Shown here: piece after piece, positions 5,731-60,819 of the stretch
Numbering within the stretch: position 1 is the stretch's first letter
Layout: each line of letters begins with the position of its first letter
Assembly: GCA_964016885.1 (NCBI GenBank)
Contig: OZ024753.1
Location: forward strand, 20,894,001 to 20,958,000
Reading direction: 5' to 3'
Source of the DNA: Eledone cirrhosa
Taxonomy: Eukaryota
DNA length: 64,000 bases
The notes under the pieces: model-generated
What the model was told of the DNA's origin: nothing
What the model saw: only the letters and a program-made list of their open reading frames with translations
The model's database searches: none
Position numbers and translations under genes: made by a program

Positions 5731-5995
5731 TCCAGGCCGAAACAAATGAGGTCGTCTAGGTGTCACGACAAAAAAACACACAGTCCACGCTGTAATGTGG
5801 CCGTGTAGGTAACACGGTAAAAACCTCCCAGTTCCACACTGTAAATGTGGCTGGTGTTAGGAAGGGCATCCAGCCGTAGAAAACCTGCCAGGCAGTCCTA
5901 TGCGAGCAAGACAACCACTCTTGCCTCAAGTGGGAAAAATCCCGTCCAAACCCATGCAAGCGTGGAATATGGACATTAAACGATGATGATGATGA
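5731..5995 (+). mobile_element. RTE family A 3' UTR fragment
   Basis: Matches 8932-9210; (GAT)n tail. Confidence 0.85.
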
Positions 5996-6042
5996 TATAT
6001 GTATATATATGTATATATATATATATGTATATATATGTATGC

Positions 6043-6079
<37 letters not shown>

Positions 6080-6145
6080 TATGCATATATATGTATATAT
6101 ATATATGTATATATATGTACATATATATGTATATATATATATATG

Positions 6146-6183
<38 letters not shown>

Positions 6184-6253
6184 TATGTATATATATGTAT
6201 GTATATATATATGTATATATATGTATGTATATATATATGTAAATATATGTATG

Positions 6254-6284
<31 letters not shown>

Positions 6285-6313
6285 ATATATATATGTATAT
6301 GTATATATATGTA

Positions 6314-8814
6314 TAAATAACCTAACTATCTGCAACACTAACTTCAAAAAACGAGACAATCACTTGATCACCTATAGATCAGGGGAACATACCAGCCAGG
6401 TAGATTATATCCTTACCAGAAAACGTGACAGAGTGTCTGTTGTTAACACTAAATCCCTCCCCCATGAAGAATGCACCTCCCAACATAGACTGATAATTAG
6501 CGACCTAATAGTCAGGACGAGACGTACTAGGCAACAAAAGAGGACTACCCTCAGGAGAAAAATATGGAAGCTAAAGGACCCCACAGCCAAAAATAAATTC
6601 CAAAGCATATTACTTGATGCTTTCGACAGTAAGGAAGAGCAAGTAGAGTCGTACAAGGTAGAGGAACAGTGGGAATTCCTGAAAGCAAACCTGCTGACGG
6701 CGACAGACAAAGTCTGTGGCTGGAGCAGGCCTGTAGGCAGGAGGAGAGTAACATGGTGGTGGAACAGTAAGGTGGAGGGGTCAATTAAGGCCAAAAAGCA
6801 GGCTTGGAAAGTATGGCAGGATGGGGGAAGCAGAGAAGACTATAAAGTGGCCAGGAGGGAAGCTAGGAGACAAGTGTACTTCGCAAGAAGGGAAGCAGAG
6901 GAAAGAAAGTTCAAGCATGTTCTACAACGTGAGGACCAAAAACGTGAGGTGTTCAGGATTGCCAGGCAATGTGTCAAGGAAAACAGTGATACTGTCGGGG
7001 AGAAGTGTGTACTTAACGATGACGGCGTACTTGCCATCACCGACACCGATAAGAAGGTAGCTTGGAAGTGTCACTATGAAAGGCTACTCAATGAGGAGAA
7101 TAAATGGGAGAAAGACAGTCTCCCCCACATCGACCCAATAGAGGGACCAGCAGTGTTAGTCGAGGGTAGTAAAATAAGTAAGGCAATCAAAGATATGAAG
7201 ACAGGCAAGGCGGCTGGGCCTTCGGAAAAAGTTGCCGAGATGCTGAAGGCATCTGGTACGGTGGGACACACCATGGTCACCCGGATAGTCAACCAAGTCA
7301 TACAGAATGGGGTTGTTCCGAAGGACTGCCGTAGCAGCATTATCGTTAACTGTTATAAGGGTAAAGGAGATGCCCTAGATAGGAGTAACTATAGAGGCAT
7401 TAAATTAATCGACCAGGTCATGAAGGTCACGGAAAAAGTAATAGCGCAACTAATCAGAGAGCGAATTGATCTAGATGAAATGCAGTTCGGGTTTGTGTCA
7501 GGAAAAAGTACCACAGACGCTCTTTTCATTGTACGACAACTACAGGAGAAGTACCTAGCTAAAAGTAAACCCCTATACTTAGATTTCGTCGACTTGGAGA
7601 AGGCCTTCGACAGAGTCCCCCGTTCCATTATCTGGTGGGCTCTTAGAAAACTAGGTGTCGATGAATGGCTTGTGAGAGCTATACAAGCCATGTATAAAGA
7701 AACAGTCAGCAAGGTTAGAATTAACAACAAATATAGTGAAGAGTTTAGTGTAAAAGTTGGTGTTCATCAGGGCTCTGTTCTTAGCCCCCTACTATTTATT
7801 ATTGCCCTCCAGGCTATAACAGTGGAGTTCAAGACCGGCTGCCCATGGGAACTCCTATACACAGATGATCTAACGCTCATAGCTGAATCAATGGCCGAGC
7901 TAGAGAAGAAATTCCAAACTTGGAAGCACGGGCTAGAATCAAAAGGCCTTAAAATTAACCTGGCTAAGACTAAAGTTCTAGTTTGTAAGAAAGAAAATAA
8001 GGCGGCGGTCCCCTCCGGGAAGTGGCCATGCGCAGAGTGTAGGAAAGGCGTAGGTAGAAATTCCATTTTGTGTCCCAAATGCAAAGTTTGGGTTCATAAA
8101 AGATGTAGTGGGATCACAGGTAAGCTAACTAAGAACATAGATTTTACATGTGGCCGGTGTTCTGGGGCAATAAGTAGCAGCAAGTGCCCACAAAATACTA
8201 GCTCTTTCAACTGCGCAGAGGGTTCTATAGAAATAGTGTACAGCTTCCGTTACCTGGGTGACAAAATCAGCAGTGGGGGAGGGTGCTCTGAAAGTACAGT
8301 AGCTAGAGTCAGAACTGGGTGGAAAAAGTTCAGAGAGCTTATACCACTATTAGCCGCTAAAGGGTTCTCCCTAAAAATGAAAGGCAGGTTGTATGATGCC
8401 TGCATACGAACAGCAATGTTGCATGGCAGTGAGACCTGGGCATTGTGTGTAGAGGATATACGCAGACTAGAGAGAAACGAAGCTTGCATGCTCCGCTGGA
8501 TGTGTAATAGTAATATACGTGAACGACAAAGCATAAACGAACTAAGGAAAAAATTAGAAATAAGAGGGATCAGATGTTGTTTACTAGAGAGAAGGCTACG
8601 TTGGTATGGTCACGTGATGCGCATGAAGGACGATAGCTGTATAACAAAGTGCAGGGCAATAAAGATAGACGGTAGCCACGGAATAGGCAGACCCAGAAAA
8701 ACCTGGGACGAGCTGATAAACTCCGACCTCACACAGTTATACCTCACCAAGACAATGTCACTGGACCGAGACCTTTGGCGGTACTCAGTAATAGAGAAGA
8801 CCCGCCTTACCTAA
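6314..8814 (+). CDS. RTE LINE ORF (5'-truncated): C-terminal part of AP endonuclease plus reverse transcriptase with internal PHD-type finger
   Basis: Open frame of ~830 codons: [72 protein letters not shown]. The first ~110 aa of the listed ORF are microsatellite. Confidence 0.92.
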
Positions 8815-9371: not shown

Positions 9372-9404
9372 AGTATATATATGTATATATATATGTATAT
9401 ATAT

Positions 9405-9545
9405 GCAGGAGGTGAGTTTTATTGTAGTACAATAAAGCAATGCAGATATCGGATAAGTAGCACTCTACAGTTTGTAGGACTGGAGTATAAATAATATATA
9501 AGATACATGGAACTCTTTTAACCATCTTTTGATCTTATATATTAT
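9405..9545. repeat. ~140-bp unit; empty-site counterpart of 23592-23688 + 25809-25860
   Basis: GGAGGTGAGTTTTATTG...ATAATATATA|AGATACATGGAACTC is contiguous here and split by a PLE at 23.7-25.8 kb. Confidence 0.85.
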
Positions 9546-9780
9546 ATGTATATATATATATATGTATATGTATATATATGTATATATATGTATATATATA
9601 TATGTATATGTATATATATATATGTATATGTATATATATGTATATATATGTATATATATGTATGTATATATATATATATGTATATATATGTATGTATATA
9701 TATGTATATATATGTATATATGTATGTATGTATATATATATATGTATATATATATATGTATATATATGTATGTATATATT

Positions 9781-13327: not shown

Positions 13328-14699
13328 AATACAATATATAACAGTTTTACAAATAAGCTTTGACGTACCCTTTTAAAATGCGACCATTATTTTTGGAAGC
13401 CATCTGGATAGTGAATTGTTTATATTATTTTAATAAGTCTTAGTGTTAAGGACAATTAGAAAAAGACGGAGAGAGAGAAAAAAGAAAAAGAAAAAACGTG
13501 GAGAAATATCGGAGAGAGAGAAATGCTTGGAGAAAAAAGAAAGAGATAAATAAAGACAGGAGGAAAGAAAGAAAAAAGAAAAAAGAAAAAAGGAAGAAAT
13601 AAGAAAAACAGAGGAAAGCAACAGAGAGATATCAAATCATCAGACAGATAGAAATACTCAAGAGAGAGAAATAATATATAGAGAGAGGGGGAGATAATGA
13701 AAACTTTACGTCATGTCATATTAAGTTGAGTTAACAATTTATATGAAATGAATAATAAAAATATAAATATTAATATTCATGAATGGGACATAAATATATA
13801 ATATGAGAAATTAAACATTGTTTAATAATGATTATATGTTTAGTTTAAAAATTGAGATCGATATACTAAAATTTGAATTTAGCATCCAAAATGTACACAT
13901 TGCTAGAGAAACCACTATCTTACGGCAAAGATACACAAATATATATATATATATACGCACATCCTGAAAATAGAAATTATATCTACTCAAGCCTACAATA
14001 TAGACATACAAAACACAACTGATTTCTCTTAATCACTGCTATACATTCCTTGTGTTATAAAAAGTTCACAGTATATATACATAAATATATACGATTAACA
14101 TTCATGCTTTCATATATACGATTACCATTCATGCATTTAACATTCTGTTAAAATTATGCATATCTGCAATCAAAACTGCGTGGGTAGGCATGCACACACA
14201 TAACTCTCACCCACACACATACATATACATATATATATATACACATACTCATATGTATAAATAAATGTTTGCGTGCGTTTTCACCAATTGTTAGACCCGC
14301 ATCACTCATGTACACATACAGACAGATATACAATCATAAAAAAACATATAACACTTTTATATGCATGTTAATACACATACATATTTGTATAGAGATAATC
14401 AAATGTCAATATATTACTAAAGGATTATACTTTGGAAATATAATTATAAAAATATAAATTTAAAATACCAAAGGATTATATTTTGGAAATACAATTATAT
14501 CAGTATAGTCTAAAAGACAAACGAATTCTAGAAATATCAAAACATTAAATATCCCTAAAACACTATAGAGTATCTTAAGTTGAAATAATATGTCTCATAT
14601 ATTTAGTATAGAAATTTATCCTACGTATATTTCAATCAAGATTTTGAAAGGGTAGACTTATGAAAATTATGAGAAGCTATCAGAATCAAAACAAACCTA

Positions 14700-19863: not shown

Positions 19864-20558
19864 GAACGGAAAAATGAAACAAAATTTCATTTCCTACTCT
19901 TAGTACGGCTATTACTTAAATATAAGTATGTACACGTACATACATATATGTATACAGACGTACAGTAGTATGTATATATATATACATACTTGCACACATA
20001 TATATATGTACGTATGGATTCACCGAACATTTATTATAATGCTCGGAGTGTTTGTAAACAATCATCCCGTATTAAGCCATAGTGTCCAGCAACCATCGTT
20101 GCTCGTTTGTTCAACACTGACAAAGGAACACTGTACTAGTTTCAAGCTTATTAACTATCGTCAGCAACGTATACCTTCCTGCCAGATCGTTGAACGTATA
20201 TACTAACCTTATGCATATTAATGGCTGAGTAGCCCAATTTGCATATCGAGTGGGTTAATCGGCTGGGTGCACCGAAAACGATAAACGGAAGAAATGAAAC
20301 GAAATTTCATTTCCCACTCTTAGTACGGCTGTTACTTAAATATAAGTATGTACACGTACATACATATATGTATACAGACGTACAGTAGTATGTATATATA
20401 TATACATACATGCACACATATATATATGGATGGATTCACCGAACATTTATTATAATGCTCGGTGTGTTTGTAAACAAACATCCCGTATTAAGCCATAGTG
20501 TCCAGCAACCATCGTTGCTCGTTTGTTCAACACTGACAAAGGAATGCTGTACTAGTTT
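19864..20558 (-). mobile_element. Retrozyme-like tandem HHR repeat, ~420-nt monomer (1.65 units)
   Basis: 19891 repeats at 20311 (period 420); no ORF; TA flanks; related copies at 55.7 and 59.7 kb. Confidence 0.8.
20129..20169 (-). ncRNA. Minimal type I HHR with palindromic helix III
   Basis: cguug CUGACGA uaguuaauaagcuu GAA ACUAGU A cagug. Confidence 0.8.
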
Positions 20559-23564: not shown

Positions 23565-23688
23565 GTATATATGTATGTATATATATATAATGTAGGAGGT
23601 GAGTTTTATTGTAGTACAATAAAGCAATGCAGATATCGGATAAGTAGCACTCTACAGTTTGTAGGACTGGAGTATAAATAATATATAC

Positions 23689-25811
23689 ATTGATGCTAAC
23701 GCCAATTACTATAATAACGCACTTTCTAAAGCCGGTTATCCTGATAAAATTAAATATAGTAAAGAAACAAATTCTAGAAGATCTTACAGTAGAATAATTA
23801 ATCATGATCATTCCAATAACTTTAATAAAAGACCTAGATACAAAAACATAATCTGGTATAATGCTCCTTTCTCCATCTCTATTAATAATAATATTCCTAA
23901 ATTATTCTTTAGTGTCTTAAATAAATGCTTCCCTCCCTCACATATCTATAGTAAAATATTTAACAAATAACATTTTCCTATTCGACCTCCTCCAACATCT
24001 CCAACATTATCTCTAAACACAACAATAAAATACTAAATACTAAATCTCTTCCTTCCAACACTGAATATCATAATTATAGTAATAGTACTCCCGACATCAT
24101 TGTAAACTCTAGGCTAATTTCTGCAAACCCAAATACAACGTCAAACGCAACTTCGTTAAATGTTCTTAATCCCAATCTAAATCAAAAAACTATTATTCCT
24201 ATCGTAAATAACTTCTCCAATCCAATTCCTTCTATAGATAACACTAGGTCACTTGTTAATAACTCTGTTAATTTCTCTAATCGCAATTGTAATTGCCCTG
24301 TTAAAAATAAATATCCTCTCAACAACCATTGTCTTGAAGAAAACTTAATCTATGAATGTAATGTTATAACTGATACCAATTCCTTTACCTATTTTGGCTC
24401 CACTTCCACCTCCTTTAAAGCTCGTCTTTATAATCATTATTCGTCTTTTAAATACCAACTTAAAAGAACCAACACGGCACTCTCAGAACTCATATGGTCC
24501 TTGAAAGACAAAAATATTAACTATAACATCTCTTGGAAGAAGGTTTGTTCCGCTTCTCCATACCTGAATGCCTCTCTATCCAAGACATGTAATCTCTGTT
24601 TATGTGAGAAATTTACCATTATATCTAATTTAGATTCTATAATAAATAGACGCACTGACTTGTTTTCTCTCTGCTTGCATAAATTCCACAGAACATTCCA
24701 TAAAGTATACAGCTAATATCTAATACTTTACCAATTTAAAATCCTTTTTCTCAAAGGCACATATATATATATACATATATATTTCTTTAAAAATATACCT
24801 ATCTTTCTACCTTATTTCAATGTTATTTATTATACATTATATAATACTTGTTACTCATTCTATATCACTCCTATTTATCACTTCCCTTTCTTTCTTTTTT
24901 TCCTTTTTACTTTTAATTTCTAACCTCTAATCTGTACCTTTTCTTCCTAGATACTTCTCAATTCTCATTATTACTCACCACAATCCCCCCAACGTTGACT
25001 TTGCCTTTCATCCTTACGGGGTCGATAAAATAAAGTACTGGGAAATTGTTGGCCTTGTGCCTAAAGTAGAAACAATTATTACTCACCACAATATATCCAC
25101 TCTTCCTTCTTCCATCCTATCACTGGCCATAAAATTTAGTATCACCTTGAAAAATACTTCGTAAACATAAACATTTTTTTTACGTTAGATTATTCATCCT
25201 CAATTCATTATTTTTTTCTCCCTTTCATGCTCATCTAACTTCTACATATTACACATATTCATCCACTCTTCTACTTCTTTTCACAATATATGCTTAATTA
25301 CATTACTATTTTTATATTTTTTTAATAATACATATTAACAATTTCTTTTCATCGCACATATTATTAAACCCTTCAATATACAAACCTTAATTTAACATTA
25401 TTCTTAAATTTTTTTCTGCGTTAATTTTCAAATTCTTTTAATTTATATATTATCTTCCAACGATTTTTTAACCTCTCTCTGTAAAACAATATATTTTTCT
25501 CAGTTATAGAAGCTATCTCTCTCTCTCTCTATCACCCATCTCTCCTCCTATCTCATCCTTCCTTATTATACTCCTCCCCCTCCATTCTTTACTCTCATCT
25601 CCTCCTCTTTTTCATCCATTTCAACCACCAACCCCCTGAATTTTTCTTTTTTTTTTCCCAATATCACACATCAATCTAAAACCACTTTTCATATGTTGAT
25701 TTAAAACTGCACTATTCACAAGTGTTTTTTAACCTTCATATGATGTCTCCCGATTTTATCTGACGAAAACGCAAATGTCATCGCATGATATTTGTTTTTG
25801 AAATGCGCATA
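23689..25811 (+). mobile_element. 5'-truncated PLE (Hydra-like GIY-YIG) with 1.1-kb 3' UTR
   Basis: [57 protein letters not shown]; stop at 24716; Meta-type SINE piece at 24990-25080. Confidence 0.88.
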
Positions 25812-25814
25812 ATA
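25757..25814 (+). ncRNA. Type I HHR at the PLE 3' terminus
   Basis: uau CUGACGA aaacgcaaaugucau-cgc-augauauuuguuuuu GAA AUGCGCAU A aua: helix II 14 of 15 bp, palindromic helix III, cleavage after 25811. Confidence 0.88.
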
Positions 25815-25854
25815 TAATACATGGAACTCTTTTAACCATCTTTTGATCTTATAT

Positions 25855-25878
25855 ATTATATATGTATATATATGTATG

Positions 25879-52170: not shown

Positions 52171-52907
52171 TAAGCATTCTAACCATCCTGCCAGCATAAC
52201 CAAGAACCTGGTAAGAAACGTTTCTTTGAGGCTTTCCCGTCTATCTACAAACTAGCATATTTTCAACGACCATTCCACATATTACATGGAAGCTCTTGTT
52301 CGGAGTGGATTTGTCGATAAGGTAGCATATACAGAGTACGAGAATAGACCTAGGAAAAATAGATCCCGACGCATTATATGGTATAACCTACCATATAATA
52401 TGGAGGTGGCCACACCATTAGCTAAGATCTTTCTCTCCCTTATTATGAAGCATCCCTCCTCCCCAGCACATAAATATAGTAACATTTTTAATAGAAATAC
52501 CATTACGACTTCAGTTACGTGGTTTTGTCTTTGCGTGTAATTGTTCTCATTCTTCCACATAATGACGTATTATCTTCGTTTTTTCCGTTCATTGCCAGAG
52601 AACGTCTCTATGAACCACCTAATAGAGTATTAGTCTACGGCTTCATTTATACCATAAACGTTGTTTTGTCTTTGCGTGTAATTGTTTTCTCCGCTCCAAA
52701 TAATGACGTATTCCTCGTTTTTTTTTCGTTCTTTGCCAGGGAACGTTTCCACGAACCAAAGTATCGTCTTCCTGTCGTCCTTCGGTTGCAACGTTTTTTG
52801 AAATATTTACTTCTGCGTTCACAGATTGACTTTTTTAGTTTCGGAAGATCCCGTTAAGGGTGAAAGCAGCGATTCTTTGCTTAAACTTTAATCTGTTATT
52901 TTAATAA

Positions 52908-52910
<3 letters not shown>
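52171..52910 (+). mobile_element. Internally deleted inverted copy of the adjacent PLE
   Basis: KHSNHPASITKNLV...FNRNTI joined at ~52506 directly to the pseudo-LTR. Confidence 0.85.
52837..52887 (+). ncRNA. HHR-like motif with non-canonical position 4 (mirror copy 53034-53083 minus)
   Basis: aguuu CGGAAGA u-ccc-guuaa-ggg-u GAA agca-loop-ugcu U aaacu. Confidence 0.55.
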
Positions 52911-53002
<92 letters not shown>

Positions 53003-53008
53003 ATATAT

Positions 53009-55687
53009 GTATTTATTAAAATAACAGATTAATGTTTAAGCAAAGAATCGCTGCTTTCACCCTTAACGGGATCTTCCGAAACTAAAAAAAGTCAATCTGT
53101 GAACGCAGAAGTAAATATTTCAAAAAACGTTGCAACCGAAGGAAGACAGGAAGACGATACTTTGATTCGTGGAAACGTTCCCTGACAAAGAACGGAAAAA
53201 AACGAAGATAATACGTCATTATTTGGTGCAGTGAAAACAATTACACGCGAAGACAAAACTACGTTTATGGTATAAATGAAGTCGTAGACTAATACTCTAT
53301 TAGGTGGTTCATAGAGACGTTCTCTGGCAATGAACGGAAAAAACGAAGATAATACGTCATTATGTGGAAGAATGAGAACAATTACACGCAAAGACAAAAC
53401 CACGTAACCGAAGTCGTAGACTAAAATTTTATTTAGGAAACCGAATGATTCTCGGCTTCAGAATTAAGAATAAAGTAAATAAAATACAGAGGTAATTGAA
53501 AATATATACATACACACATCCATATACGTACATACACAAGCATACGCGTAACCACTCCCCATGGGTATGCAAATACCAGCACGTATACACAAAAAAAAAC
53601 ACATACACACGCACATGCATAACCCACGCAACGCCTGTACCGCACACATACGAACGTATACACCAAATACACGTAAAAAAAGAAAAATCATATATATATA
53701 TATATGCACATGTGTGTGTGTGTGTGCGTGTATACATAATTAAATAAACGTATATAAATATGCACACATAAATACGTATACAACGCGCGCACACACACAC
53801 CCACATGTATAGATACATATGTTCGCGGACGTACGTCAACCAAAACACAAAGTACACATATACACACACCCTACATACGTACGAACCCGCATACTCACAC
53901 AGACGCAAAACTCCCGTATATACATAACCAAATACACATGTACCAGTATATAAAGCATATACAAGCAAATATACGTACGAGAAAATATACGTACCTTCAC
54001 AAAACATACAGGTAATATATACTTACCTATACGAATAAGTAATAGTATTAACATTACATATACTTAGCTACCACATCAAGACGTAAAATATCCGCGTATA
54101 GTTCGTATTATCCGTTAGGGTATAATGTGGGGCTGTAATACAGGAAAGTGTTGTGCAATTTATGTTTACAAGCCGAGATTGCCTCAGATTTTTTGTTTAA
54201 GATGTGGTTTTTGGCGTAGAGTATTTCCAGGGCCTCAGCGGCGCAAAGGTCACATGGTCCTTTATTTTCGTTATACGATCTAGCCTTAGCTAGGATCTCC
54301 CAGTGTAACTTATATTGGGTGTGGTTGTCTTTTAGACTCCAGATATAAGCTGAAAGTGACGTCATATTCCTTCTTAAAGGGTTAAGAAAAGAATGGTATG
54401 CATGTAAAGACGCTGCTTGAATCTATTGGCGGTTAACCCTATGTAGGCCCTACGGGACGTGGGTGTTTCAACCTTATATTTGTAGACAATGTTACTAGAG
54501 AGGCATTTCCCGGAAAAGGGGCAGTCAACGCGATTCCTACAATTACAGTTAGTACTAGCTACAGGGTTGCACGTGTTCCTACGGCTAGGTAATTTAGCTA
54601 AATTTGAAGCTGTGATGTTATGTGCAAGGTTAGGAGTCGTAGAGTAAGAAATTTTAATGGTATTTCTATTAAAAATGTTACTATATTTATGTGCTGGGGG
54701 AGGGGATGCTTCATAATAAGGGAGAGAAAGATCTTAGCTAAAGGTGTGGCCACCTCCATATTATATGGTGGGTTATACCATTTATGCGTTGGGATCTATT
54801 TTTCCGAGGTCTATTCTCGTACTCTGTATAAGCTACCTATCGACAAATCCACTCCGAGCAAGAGCTGCATTGTAATATGTGGAATGGTCGTTGAAAATAT
54901 GCTCGTTTGTAGATAGACGAGAAAGCCTCAAAGAAACGTTTCTTACCAGGTTCTTGGTTATGCTGGCAGGATAGTTAGAATGCTTACTTATGTAATTAAG
55001 CGTAACATTCGGCTTTCTATACGGGTAGTGCAAGCCATTCGACAAATCGAGGGTAACGTCGAGGTAATTAACGACCGAGAGGTTGGCCTCAACCTGTATA
55101 GAGAAGTTGAAGCCTTTAAAGAAGGCTGTGCGTTCTTTTCTGAACCTGTCGTAAGCACGTAGGCCGCACTTTGTCATGGTCAAAAGACCGTCATCACGGT
55201 ACAAACCACCGCCCACGTTGAGGAATTATTCCTTAATAGAGAAGAGAAGGAAATAGTCGTAGAAATTAATCACCGACTTACGGGCATTGATGATGACATC
55301 AGCTTCGAAATCTTTAACCACTGAGAGTGTTTTAGCGAAATTGATAGCTCTAAGGAGAAGTGGTAAAGTGATGGAGGAGAAGTAATTATTGATGTCGAAT
55401 TGGATAAAATGGCAAAGTTCCCTGTTACATATGCCGTTGAACCAATCAATCACCGCGAAAGAATTGTTCCACAGTGCAAGAGGGGCCAAACTTCTAATTA
55501 CAGGTATAATCCTATCTAAAATCCTACCTAAATCGGGCTTCGTAGGGTTAATAAGCCGAATAGAAGGGTTGTTCGGGAAATTGGATTGTTATTTTAATAA
55601 ATATTTGCTCTACGGTTCTTATATATTTGATATATATTTATCCTTATCGAGCCCTCTTTGGATTTTAGTCTTCAAATTTATTATTAT

Positions 55688-55690
<3 letters not shown>
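53009..55690 (-). mobile_element. 5'-truncated PLE (Hydra-like): RT + GIY-YIG + 3' UTR
   Basis: IRLINPTK, FIQFDINNYFSSI, GLYRDDGL, VNYLDVTLDL, YRKPN, CNC..CP..GKCL, CDLCAAE. RT motif 4 is deleted. 55587-55690 begins with an inverted match to the 3' tail. Confidence 0.9.
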
Positions 55691-55747
<57 letters not shown>

Positions 55748-55752
<5 letters not shown>

Positions 55753-56270
55753 TATGTACACATACATACATATATGTATACAGACGTACAGTAGTATGTA
55801 TATATACATACATGCACACATATATATATGTACGTATGGATTCACCGAACATTTATTGTAACGCTCGGTGTATTTGTAGACAAACATCCCGTATTAAGCC
55901 GTAGTGTCTAGCAACCATCATTGCTCGTTTGTTCAACACTGACAAAGGAACGCTATACTAGTTTCAAGCTTATTAGCTATCGTCAGCAACGTATACCTTC
56001 CTGCCAGATTGTTGAACGTATATACTTACCTTATACATATTAACGGCTGAGTAGCCCAATTTGCATATCGAGTGGGTTAATCGGCCGGGTGCACCGAAAA
56101 CGATAAACGGAAAAAATGAAACGAAATTTCATTTCCCACTCTTAGTACGGCTGTTACTTAAATATAAGTATGTACACGTACATACATATATGTATACAGA
56201 CGTACAGTAGTATGTATATATATATACATACATGCACACATATATATATGTTCGGTGAATCCATACGTAC
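55748..56270 (-). mobile_element. Retrozyme-like HHR repeat, copy 2 (HHR 55951-55991)
   Basis: cguug CUGACGA u-agcu-aaua-agcu-u GAA ACUAGU A uagcg; ~1.2 units plus a 22-nt inverted piece at 56251-56272. Confidence 0.8.
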
Positions 56271-59200
56271 ATGGTAAAAGGACACTTTTTCTTCATCAAC
56301 AGAATTCATAATTGGAGCATAGACACTCACCAGGGTCGCATATCTTCCTTTGTCCAGCGGAATTCTCATGGACATAAGACGCTTACTAATCCCCACTGGG
56401 AATTCTTTTAATTTATCCACAAGAGCAGTCTTAACAGCAAATGCTACCCCAACCTCTCTGGTTCCTGGTGACACCGCTTCGCAACAAGGATGGCAAGGAA
56501 CTTCTTCGTGACTCACAAGGAATTCTACGAAGGTGGCGAGAGCACTTTGATGAACTGTTGAATCAGCCGTATGTTGTCAATGAAGATTTCCTCAATCTCA
56601 TTCCAGGAAAACCTGTGAAAGTAGCTCTCGCAGAACCTCCGACGCTTGTGGAGGTTGCAGTGGCTATCTCGAAGCTGAACAGTGGAAGGTCTCGAGGTAT
56701 GGATGGCATACATGCAGAGCTCCTACAATATGGTGGTGAGAGACTTCTGCAACATCTTTTAGAAGTAGGTATTTTTGTGGATGTTCACCAATTTAGAGGA
56801 AGATAGGCTGGTTGGAGAGAGATATATGGATATAGATATGTGTTGTTATGAATGTTAATATTTGTTTGCGGTTTGTATCACAGAGAGTAACCGAAGCAGT
56901 CCAAGGGAATGTTGTGGCAAATATCATCATAAGGCATTACAATGTTTTTTATATATAATTTATTTAAAAAACATGAGAAGTTGAGTTAGCAGTAATGACA
57001 TGTTGTGGTTAGTGGTTAACCATGTTGCTGCTGATGATGATGATTTTGTTGATGTTAGCCATGTTGTAAAAAAGAATTTTATCTCTTGTAATTTTTTAAA
57101 AGAGAGCTAATTTTTTTTTTTTTTAAGAATGTTGTCTCATGCGGGTTCATTGAAGTTAAACCATGTGTTGTGCTGTTATCAACAAAAAGGTTTTTAAATG
57201 GTGCTGATACTATACAAGAAAGCTTGCGTGTTGTTCTTTTTAAAAAAATACCACTTCTTATTGTTTTTTGTAAAGGAACATTTAATTCAAAAATGTTCTC
57301 GTGACTGGGTCACCAATATAGAAATAGGTATTTTTGTGGATGTTCACCAATTTAGAATGAGTATTTTTGTTGTGAGTTAATTGAGAGAGTTAATAGATGA
57401 TATACTGTATCTATTGTTGAGAATGTATGTATTTGTTTGTGTATTGTATCAGAGAAGTCACCATTGAAGCAGTCCAAGGGACAAAAACAGAAGTTGTTGA
57501 GTTAGCAGTAATGACATGTCATAAGAAATGAAACAATACAAATTAAGATGCTGTAAAAGAATACGCAGACCGATGGCTGAAGTTAGAAGCCACGGCAGCG
57601 GTAATTGTTTGATAGCTACATTTTGGAAAGTTTGTTGAGTAAAATCAAGAGATGTTTACCTTCCGGTGTCAAGATTCGAAAAGAGAGTTTTTCAAAGAGA
57701 AGCCGGAATTTTTCCCTTTCGGCAGAAGTTGAAATACATCTCCCTATGCTGGTAGCGATTGGCTGAACTGAGCCAAACAACGTACGGAGAATGTATTCAA
57801 GAGCCCTCAGAATGTAGGTCGCTACAATCTTCACTCTTTGTTTGGCAGGATATGGACTAATGAACCCATACCTGAGGACTGGAAAGATGTACTAATGGTG
57901 GTCTTGTACAAGGGAAAGGGTAACAAGAATTATTGAGGAAACTACAGAGGTATATCATTGCTTTCTCTCATAGGAAAAATGTTATGTAGGGTGCTTCTGG
58001 ACCGTCTTCTGACACACATTGCAGATTGTGTTCTTCCTGAAAGTCAATCTGGTTTTCGTGCTTGACACAGCATTACTGATATGATCTTCTCAGCTAGACA
58101 GCTCCAGGAGAAGTGCATGGAACAAGGTTTGGATCTGTATCAGGTTTTTATCGATCTGACAAAAGCTTTCGATACTGTTAACAGAAATGCATTATGGAAG
58201 GTTCTCCAGAAACTTGGTTGCCCTGATAAGTTCCTTGCTTTAGTTAGGTCTGTCCATGACGACATGAAGGCTTGGGTTAATGTCGGAGGTAACATGTCGG
58301 AGCCTATCTCATTAAAAAATGGAGGGAACAGAGGGATATTCCAGCACCGACCCTGTTTGCCATATACTTTGCAATGATTTTCTATATTGCATTCAGGAAT
58401 TGTGAGCATGGTGTTTACATCCAATATCAAACCTTAGGCAGCATATTATCAGGTGCTTCGCTGCAAAAACAAAAGTATTTACATCAATCATAAGAGACCT
58501 CTTGTATGCAGATGCTTGCGATCTTGTAGCGCACACAGAGATTGATATGCAACACATTTTGAATGCATTTTCTGATGCTTGCACTTCCCATGTACCAACC
58601 AGCCCCTGATAAGCAGTACAGTGAGCCAAATATCTATGTGTATGATAAACGACTTGGAGTGGTTGATCAGTTTGTCTACCTGGGAAGCATTGTCAATCGA
58701 TACAGCAACCTTGATAATGAAATCCCACTCAGGATTAGGAAAGCAAGTGATGCTTTCTGAAAGCTAGAAAGGCGACTCTGGGGTTGGCGGGACATATGCA
58801 AGAAGACAAAGGTAAAGGTGTACAATGCATGTGTGCTCTCCTATCTTCTTTATGCCTGCGAAACCTGGGTCACATATCGACACCACCTTAAGCAATTGGA
58901 GCGTTTCCATCAGATGTGTCTCAGACGGATCCATGGCGTTCACTGGAGGGACCACATCAGTGATGTCAAGATTTTGTAAAGCTCTCTGTGTGACAGTATA
59001 GAAGCTCTTGTGCTTAAGCAAAGGTTCCGTTGGTCACCTTGCCAGCATGAAGGATTCTAGACTACCGAAACAACTCATTTATGGAGAGTTAGTTAAAGGA
59101 AAACGACCTCCACATAAACCAAAAAAGAGGTATAAGGATTCCTTGAAAGCCTCTTTGAAAGACGCTAACATCTCTGCTGATACATGGGAAAATGTTGCTG

Positions 59201-59646
59201 CTGATCGTAATAAATGGAGAAAGATTGTTTATGAGGGGAAAGTTGCCTTTGAGGCATCTCGAATCGCATACGAGAAAGTAAAGTGGGATGTGAGGAAGGG
59301 CATTGCTGTTGCATTTCCAGACTGTGAAGGTCTTCTTATGGCGCTGACATACAGTGTCTGTGCGAGACTCTGCCTAAGCAAAGCTGGACTCGAAAGTCAT
59401 CTTCGCAGTCATAAAGTGAGACCAGTGGTTGACTACCAGGCTGCTGTTGGAGATGTTACTTATCATGCTTGCCAAACATGTGGTAGAGAATGAAAATCAG
59501 CAGGAGGGTTCAAACGACGTGCAAAAGTACATGAACTCCAACCACAGCCGGCTATCCCCAGTGAATGTTTTGGTTGCCAACTCTGAGCAAGACATTTTAG
59601 ATCATTGGCTGGGCTAAAAATCCACATTCGATCGCAGCACTCTTAA
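56271..59646 (+). mobile_element. Decayed BovB-like RTE family D with 5' inversion and C-terminal C2H2 fingers
   Basis: 56271-56468 minus APE piece (LVSVYAP); plus strand RWREHF, FIDLTKAFDTV, LYAD, FVYLGS, RLPKQLIYGEL, C..C...H...H repeats; interrupted at 56759-57826. Confidence 0.88.
56759..57826 (-). mobile_element. Internally deleted Gypsy-type LTR element remnant
   Basis: TSD ATCTT (56754-58, 57827-31); 5' LTR 57826-57317 starts TGTAG; PBS TGGTGACCC at 57315-57307; partial second LTR 56759-57005. Confidence 0.75.
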
Positions 59647-59732: not shown

Positions 59733-59841
59733 TGGAATAGAATGAAATGAAATTTCATTTCTCACTCTTAGTACGGCACTTACTTAAATGTAAGTATGTA
59801 TGTATACGTACATACATATATGTATACAGACGTACAGTAGC

Positions 59842-59890
<49 letters not shown>

Positions 59891-60312
59891 CAGGCACACA
59901 TATATATATGTACGTATCAGTTTAGCGAACATTTATTATAATGTTCACTTTGTTCGTTTGTAAACAAACGGACAGCCTGATTTATGCCGTACGGTGTTAA
60001 GGCAACCACGTCACCTTTTTGTTCAACACTGACACAGGAACGATGTACTAGTTTCAAGCTTGTTAGCTATCGTCAGCACCGTATACCCTTCTGCCAGATG
60101 GTTGAACGTTCGAAAGTATATACTTTCCTTATGAAAATTAACGGCTGAGCAGCCTAATTTGCATATTTGAGTTCAGTCGGCCAGGCGCACCGAAAACGAT
60201 AAATGGAATAGAATGAAATGAAATTTCATTTCTCACTCTTAGTACGGCACTTACTTAAATGTAAGTATGTATGTATACGTACATACATATATGTATACAG
60301 ACGTACAGTAGC

Positions 60313-60363
<51 letters not shown>

Positions 60364-60474
60364 CAGGCACATATATATATATGTATGTATCAGTTTAGCG
60401 AACATTTATTTGTTCGTTTGTAAACAAACGGACAGCCTGATTTATGCCGTACGGTGTTAAGGCAACCACGTCAC
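59733..60474 (-). mobile_element. Retrozyme-like HHR repeat, diverged subfamily (HHR 60041-60081)
   Basis: Period ~472; cggug CUGACGA u-agcu-aaca-agcu-u GAA ACUAGU A caucg. Confidence 0.8.
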
Positions 60475-60819
60475 ATTTTAGATCATTGGCTGGGCTAAAA
60501 AGCTTATATTATTATACTTATATTATTATTGTTGTTGTTGTTATTATTATTATTTTCGTTATTATTATTATTGTTATTATTGTTATTATTATTATTATTG
60601 TTCTGAGTTCAAATCCCGCCGAGGTTAACTTTGCCCTTCAGGGGTCGATAAAATAAAGTACCATTAATGCAATGGGTAATTGCTGGCCTTGTGCCAAAAG
60701 TAGAAACAATTATTATTATTATTATTATTGTTATTATTATATTTTTTTCGTGCAATGGCCATACTCAGTAACGAGGAGGCAGCCATCATATATATATGTA
60801 TATATACATATATGCATGT

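Follow-up and report, generated by a model that had tools for sequence, protein, structure and literature searches.

Three short stretches of a 64,000-nt window of the Eledone cirrhosa genome (the whole stretch of DNA that was analysed) raise the question of how a small non-coding element that carries a predicted ribozyme is copied into new sites. The mobilisation of animal retrozymes is an open question, for which a role of PLEs has been proposed from co-occurrence, shared hammerheads and, in Xenopus, pLTR homology. Such mobilisation was put forward in PMC7229834 and PMC7761336, and has been argued from homology in 10.64898/2026.07.22.740005. We believe with good confidence that a high-copy, non-coding tandem element with a predicted hammerhead has left a 5'-truncated copy at each of the three loci, and that it is moved by a PLE protein acting in trans and is thus a non-LTR retrozyme. 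That the element is non-autonomous and PLE-driven is, taken by itself, very highly probable. It likely represents a new family of the non-LTR retrozyme type, for which the evidence of PLE mobilisation, as read from genomic copies, appears unusually direct.

The first-pass annotation had reported 1.2-1.65 tandem copies at 19864-20558, 55748-56270 and 59733-60474, and these coordinates and copy numbers hold, with all three loci on the minus strand. Locus 1 (19864..20558, minus strand) is a single 5'-truncated arm of subfamily A, comprising 1.65 units of 421 nt with a TA run on either side. Its 3' end lies at the outer, tailed site s2 (19864), and a 52-nt ‘tail’ (19864..19916, minus strand) spans s2 and the inner site s1 (about 19917), two fixed 3' ends that we infer to be reverse-transcription start sites. 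The type I hammerhead of this locus occupies 20128..20170 (minus strand), with a predicted cut after GUA between 20134 and 20133 and a helix I that extends distally over about 20110-20195. A half-site at the 5' end (20544..20558, minus strand) lacks the CUGA strand and consists of the palindromic helix III strand, the cut site and the 3' strand of helix I. Locus 2 (55748..56254, minus strand) has 1.2 units of subfamily A and ends at the inner, tail-less site s1, within a TA run. Its hammerhead (55950..55992, minus strand; predicted cut between 55956 and 55955) has a private C>T change at the first helix I pair, and an inverted 29-nt stub of the unit at its 5' end (56244..56272, plus strand) is likely the remnant of a second arm.

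Locus 3 (59733..60474, minus strand) belongs to subfamily B, with about 1.6 units of 472 nt, a 3' end at s2 and one internal deletion, in its 5' copy. Its hammerhead (60040..60082, minus strand; predicted cut between 60046 and 60045) carries the G-U pair of subfamily B in helix I. Loci 1 and 2 are 95% identical, and locus 3 is 78% identical to them. The unit of about 420 nt noted previously is correct for loci 1 and 2 but not for the subfamily of locus 3, whose unit of about 470 nt varies in length with an internal TA run. Each locus is a partial tandem with one complete hammerhead only. A 29-nt direct duplication also flanks locus 3 (59592-59620 = 60473-60501); its source lies about 110 nt past the 3' end and is repeated at the 5' junction, an arrangement that does not fit an ordinary target-site duplication.

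On the minus strand of every locus is an intact CUGACGA...GAAA-CUAG-UA core (CUGA at 20164, 55986 and 60076), which confirms the earlier reading of an intact CUGACGA/GAA core with a palindromic ACUAGU. The motif runs from the helix I 5' strand through CUGACGA, U, helix II, U, GAA, ACUAGU and A to the helix I 3' strand. Helix II consists of 4 bp on a U-U base and is closed by an AAYA loop, and folding gives a helix I of 6 bp that runs on into a long distal stem. Folding z-scores are about -2 for each hammerhead examined and -6.9 for the whole unit, the latter partly owing to a TA hairpin. By comparison with the hammerhead consensus, loop-loop tertiary contacts may form in this motif. Rfam has no hammerhead model that matches it: no hammerhead family was returned in a scan of 20040-20300 even at E<=10, nor among the 150 of 278 matches listed for the window, a list swamped by TA-driven miRNA matches.

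The ribozyme had been classed as a minimal type I hammerhead, and this assignment we do not retain, given that helix I has 6 bp and that helix II has 4 bp, a U-U base and an AAYA loop. In the accounts of PMC7229834 and PMC4209133, non-LTR retrozymes carry classical hammerheads and PLEs minimal ones. The minimal hammerheads described for PLE pLTRs (PMC4209133) share with ours the type I topology, the palindromic helix III region and a predicted dependence on dimers. However, their helix II is 7-8 bp long with G10.1-C11.1, whereas the one modelled here has 4 bp and U-U, and their helix I is 4-5 bp long, whereas ours has 6 bp and a long distal stem and stands without an attached ORF. The combination of a long helix II with G10.1-C11.1 and a short helix I was not found in this family. 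As modelled, the ribozyme is a canonical-like (classical) type I hammerhead of retrozyme type rather than of the minimal PLE type.

Helix I had also been described as different in every copy yet always pairing over 5 bp. The strings stand as they were written, but the helix is actually 6 bp and continues distally, and the claim that it covaries needs to be narrowed, as two of the three window variants are one-sided C>T changes. In subfamily A, helix I most often reads CGUUG/CAGCG (66 of 106 copies). The CAGUG of locus 1 is a one-sided C>T change from it at a pair that is G-U in 11 of 130 loci and a broken A-C in 5, and the UAGCG of locus 2, likewise one-sided, is found in that copy alone; broken versions also occur at the helix I pairs altered in loci 1 and 2. 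Within the family, the sole helix I pair that truly covaries is the middle one, which differs between subfamilies (U-G in 76 loci, G-U in 47 and A-U in 9). When a 310-nt sister family (see below) is added, 7 of 12 pairs are altered on both sides and pairing is kept in all 60 cells, although this comparison draws on two families and five sequences and therefore on few independent events. Conservation was assessed on 250 aligned copies from 130 loci, with 20 of 270 left out for indels or truncation. The core is intact in 227 of the 250, recurrent variants occur in 0 of 12 core columns and 0 of 12 helix II/III columns, whereas N7, loop 2 and 7 of 45 flank columns do vary recurrently. For a natural dimer, the double-hammerhead fold (-189.3 kcal/mol) beats two single hammerheads (-181.7) by 7.6 kcal/mol and lies 6 kcal/mol above the MFE (-195.3).

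The genome-wide copy-number search that had been suggested gave 23,477 exact matches to a 33-nt core pattern in the 3.0-Gb genome and 0 to the reversed pattern, so the hammerhead core is not a product of chance. The 28 nt immediately past the cut have 24,847 matches, the best BLAST copies are 96-98% identical, and the copy set is very large and young. We analysed 137 of its loci: 82 ranked by BLAST (8 of 90 were dropped as overlaps or as the window itself) and 55 ordered by position, the latter being the stretches that hold the first 100 core-pattern matches along contig C1, with flanks that are unbiased apart from the requirement for an intact core. The tandem period is about 420-500 nt; it is 420 nt in subfamily A and about 470 nt in subfamily B, where unit length changes with an internal TA run. 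The GC contents are 0.36 and 0.35 and the longest ATG frames 92 and 64 aa, figures that agree with the non-coding nature, low GC and lack of LTR organisation of retrozymes. Head-to-tail repeats range from dimers to multimers, and folding and cross-family covariation indicate a classical type I hammerhead in each unit. The proposal of a non-coding, tandem, retrozyme-type family is supported in each of these respects.

Metazoan non-LTR retrozymes of coral, mussel and axolotl (PMC7229834) are similarly described as short, non-coding tandem units with GC below 50% (here 35-36%), a classical type I hammerhead per unit and arrays from dimers to 50-mers. The basal U-U pair of helix II recurs in axolotl HHR_Amex2, and the one-pair helix III with a palindromic loop in HHR_Amex1; axolotl motifs with a U-U pair and a weak palindromic helix III are reported to cleave well only as dimers (PMC7229834). 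Our unit, with its internal TA microsatellite, is at or above the top of the 150-450 bp range given there, and within the 51-972 bp range given for vertebrate retrozymes in 10.64898/2026.07.22.740005. Expression, cleavage and circles have been demonstrated for the metazoan elements and are predictions for the present family. Conversely, a PLE tail, fixed internal 3' ends and two-arm insertions are not among the retrozyme features given in the parts of PMC7229834 that bear on this comparison. Under the definition of an ‘active’ element as two consecutive complete hammerheads (10.64898/2026.07.22.740005), the window loci are inactive fragments, whereas many loci elsewhere in the genome have at least two. 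We located no description of this family, of cephalopod retrozymes or of the pairing rule discussed below in a literature search conducted mostly outside subscription journals, Repbase and supplements, and repeat catalogues may already list the family under an unclassified or a Penelope entry.

Arrays of the family reach 50 hammerheads. The longest (50 and 34 hammerheads) are satellite-like, at C1:51.77-51.79 Mb and C1:118.08-118.10 Mb (L218-L223), and are built from 4-mer and 7-mer higher-order repeats of diverged units; several short arrays are also heterogeneous. Because such higher-order repeats exist, neither tandem length nor an ABAB pattern can by itself demonstrate rolling-circle copying, and the ABAB array L163 was for this reason rejected as proof of dimeric circles.

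A general hammerhead scan revealed the sister family, which has a 310-nt unit with the same hammerhead architecture and a helix III of ACGCGU, and which dominates the 9,689 genome matches to a core pattern. Nothing outside the core could be aligned with the main unit. The sister family is much younger than the main family. Its arms hold up to 27 near-identical hammerheads, nearly star-like around one variant per array, and it has its own 35-nt tail. Representative copies are at L133:6744-9100 and L168:490-2930 and on contig C1 at C1:36.48 Mb and C1:43.58 Mb (L206-L209).

The ends of the copies bear directly on how the main family moves. Among the 137 loci, 211 of 259 arms terminate at s1 or s2, about 217 nt and 269 nt downstream of the cut and 52 nt apart, and 193 of these 211 run into TA. 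There are 79 head-to-head arm pairs, and in 54 both ends lie at s1 or s2; the other 25, with an end elsewhere or at the locus edge, were left unscored. Fifty of the 54 join one s1 end to one s2 end; the remaining 4 combine two s2 ends, and there is no s1+s1 pair (binomial p ~1e-11). In the position-ordered sample all 22 scorable pairs are s1+s2, one of them at a duplicated locus. This one-end-each rule is kept by 5 sister-family pairs in which both ends are clearly read and by 5 clean pairs of an ORF-bearing PLE family of the same genome, and broken by one complex ORF-bearing-PLE cluster in L003. Non-LTR retrozymes, where they show target-site duplications, are expected to have ones longer than 4 bp. 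Such duplications are clear at three loci (9 bp at L160, 8-12 bp at L018 and 6-9 bp at L005); of the 58 unpaired arms inspected, most have none or lie in TA sequence that prevents one from being read.

These features are those expected of PLE mobilisation: an optional 3' tail, an inverted 5'-truncated arm, and TA or AT-rich targets. The tail, the inverted arms and the TA bias are described PLE features, and the tail is often or optionally present at one end only (PMC8557442, PMC3846280). In an Anolis PLE the tail marks two internal RT start sites (PMC11167929). By analogy, the s1/s2 ends are the PLE ‘tail’ of this family. The likeness to that Poseidon element of Anolis, PAc, extends to the presence of two internal starts downstream of the cut and an optional tail (PMC11167929), and the likeness to PAc and EN+ PLEs generally to AT-rich targets, inverted 5'-truncated arms and a tail that is often at one end only (PMC11167929, PMC8557442, PMC3846280). 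However, the tails described in those sources are 30-40 nt long, whereas ours is 52 nt and lies in a unit without an ORF, and the PAc start site is reported to be alike on both strands in vitro (PMC11167929), whereas our two arms almost always differ. The conclusion is the same as that reached for vertebrate retrozymes as PLE derivatives (10.64898/2026.07.22.740005), by a different route: there the evidence is co-occurrence and pLTR homology, and here it is an insertion signature, with pLTR homology not found among the PLE pieces compared.

One tailed and one untailed arm might also arise together if priming happened once and fold-back copying and endonuclease resolution came after it. Published views lend this some weight, with self-priming favoured for head-to-head PLE inversions (PMC3846280) and the tail ascribed to endonuclease resolution (PMC8557442), and in 14 of the 50 s1+s2 pairs the two 5' ends are no more than 30 nt apart, some of them at internal palindromes. 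However, the 5' ends of the other 36 pairs are 30-210 nt apart and evenly spread. Furthermore, in 20 of the 50 pairs neither arm is contained in the other, each holding private sequence (arm ends were derived from BLAST, with a 12-nt tolerance), and fold-back copying is excluded for these 20 because each arm has sequence that the other lacks. We consider fold-back an unlikely source of the overall pattern, although some pairs may owe their form to fold-back or to annealing at palindromes. The non-nested arms instead make priming at both DNA ends the probable mode. The near-strict s1+s2 rule, together with these arms, puts a number in place of the qualitative remark that the tail is often at one end, and yields a model, open to experiment, in which PLE integration is primed from both DNA ends.

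A different challenge comes from the possibility that the unit is simply the pseudo-LTR of an autonomous PLE and that its copies are the 5'-truncated ends of that element, as the first-pass annotation had warned would follow if the unit were always attached to a PLE ORF. We looked for such attachment and did not find it. The PLE-type tail and inversions are compatible with a pseudo-LTR, and a PLE ORF does lie just downstream of locus 2. This degenerate, 5'-truncated PLE (52504-55690 of the window, minus strand) runs from RT to GIY-YIG with an internal RT deletion and has a long 3' UTR and a tail of about 100 nt; a descriptor search found no hammerhead in its 3' region. Its part at 54100-55690 adjoins locus 2, and 6 of the 55 ordered loci contain copies of this PLE family close to the unit. 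However, the element ends in a 3' terminal sequence of its own, and a TA target common to both joins it to the unit, with an inverted fragment of its 3' end lying between the two across the TA run; it was rejected as the partner. PLE mobilisation is likely from the insertion signature, but a role of the local PLE is not supported, as this neighbour shares with the unit only its TA target.

Wider comparisons agree. The unit has no significant match in the 3' regions of nine PLE ORF pieces (two of them without usable downstream sequence), with one exception that is an independent unit insertion in a flanking TA run. Past s2, 99 of 100 listed copies (of 1,101 matches) enter the next unit and none enters an ORF, although the pattern used is biased toward off-register continuations. 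The 101 unpaired arms have no recurrent ORF-derived flank, and PLE coding sequence occurs at a 5' junction in L160 only. That junction of unit and GIY-YIG was considered as an autonomous element and rejected, as it is an antisense dimer insert with a 9-bp target duplication. The host at L160:4805-7870 is a PLE with the antisense retrozyme dimer in its linker, and was itself inserted, together with that dimer, as a two-arm inverted element. The hammerhead, too, differs from the minimal PLE type. On these sequence comparisons, in which continuity with an RT/GIY-YIG ORF was not found, the unit is not a PLE pseudo-LTR, and we regard that explanation as highly improbable.

No autonomous partner sharing the terminal sequence of the unit was found among the PLE pieces compared. 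Among the sampled loci, long open frames are present in at least three kinds of PLE, which we take to be of Hydra-, Poseidon- and Neptune-like clades. One family, with a 775-aa open RT/GIY-YIG frame at L129:252-3540 (minus strand), is also present in the window at 9403-9552 and 23588-25863; it is young, has its own hammerhead with a long helix II, and gives 8,482 matches to a 20-nt terminal motif. In about one-third of 100 listed copies of this family, counted by eye, the 5' end falls on a single position some 70 nt upstream of the hammerhead, which is possibly the transcript start. This family is a candidate partner on a single junction among the 137 loci, a unit arm that meets one of its arms head to head with 4-nt microhomology (L003); the unit was present in 0 of 100 listed copies at the 5' hotspot. 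A Pfam search with ten window ORF pieces and the 775-aa ORF gave no match, and a homologue search with that ORF returned 19 unnamed or hypothetical PLE-like proteins. Another PLE 3' end, at L139:4360-5635 (minus strand), has a different hammerhead and terminates a few codons past the beginning of its own ORF, as has been described for other PLE tails; we take this element to be Neptune-like.

If a PLE protein supplies the machinery, it remains to ask what RNA it copies. Among the first 100 matches listed to the 28-nt post-cut sequence, no copy begins at the cut, and a manual count found 7 truncated within 61 nt upstream of it, the nearest 13 nt off; same-array matches in this set are not independent and the anchor letter loses some truncated copies. 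Of 100 paired 5' ends, 5 are no more than 10 nt from the cut, the number expected by chance, and 78 of 100 paired arms cross the cut at least once, in a sample that favours such arms. Because copies do not start at the cut and arms read through it, the cut linear monomer is not the usual template, which is likely to be a circle or an uncleaved multimer. Two other signals were set aside: a cluster of 5' ends just upstream of CUGA was selected by the search pattern, and a joint that reaches back 420 nt, in one of four contig runs at locus 1, is also produced by tandem DNA.

Between these templates we lean slightly towards the circle, given that the units of young arrays (L138, L144 and the sister arrays) differ little from one variant and that paired 5' ends of the main family show no sharp hotspot. 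It is nevertheless possible, if somewhat doubtful, that the same element and the same PLE machinery use an uncut linear multimeric transcript, with a hammerhead that is slow or otherwise employed and an array length renewed by DNA-level duplication or template jumps. Read-through of the cut is no less compatible with a linear precursor, because the one PLE studied in vitro inserts normally when its hammerhead is mutated and uses mainly uncut RNA as its substrate (PMC11167929); the hammerhead activity of that element is thus dispensable for insertion in vitro. In addition, only 1 of 9 predicted Xenopus retrozyme dimers was reported to cleave in vitro (10.64898/2026.07.22.740005). The higher-order repeats of long arrays also suit a linear template, as does one sister-family insertion in which a unit variant is shared between arms, with 308-nt units throughout both. 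In contrast, the nearly star-like young sister arms, the lack of a 5' hotspot such as that of the ORF-bearing PLE copies and the conservation of the core across subfamilies argue against it.

Taking the circle as the template, we can outline how the retrozyme might move. Tandem loci would be transcribed on the hammerhead strand, and adjacent hammerheads would likely pair via the ACUAGU palindrome as a double hammerhead and excise monomers, which ligation would convert to circles. A PLE protein, likely a dimer, would nick both strands of TA-rich DNA; for one PLE in vitro, internal RT starts and extension of both strands are reported and a dimer is predicted (PMC11167929). One cDNA would be primed per DNA end, one at s1 and the other at s2, and each would continue across the cut junction, in many cases over more than a unit length, until it halts at a variable point; the two would then be joined head to head. 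Some arrays would enlarge later through DNA-level duplication.

The most specific form of this proposal is that small ribozyme-made circles template a functionally asymmetric PLE dimer that cuts both strands of TA DNA, with an s1 subunit and an s2 subunit, so that an insertion is two rolling-circle cDNAs set head to head. We offer it tentatively, as plausible rather than favoured. If true, it would account for the tail and the inverted ends of PLEs at large, and would reveal how animal retrozymes move from a record of tens of thousands of natural insertions. For comparing circular and linear templates in vitro, ready substrates are available in the fixed start sites and the younger 310-nt sister family.

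Other repeat families in the window also contain hammerhead-like motifs, at 13331, 29055, 29215, 32664, 34144 and 50411, with 29055/29215 and 32664/34144 forming inverted pairs. In addition, a long open LINE RT frame, presumably RTE-like, lies between TA runs at 5980-8814.
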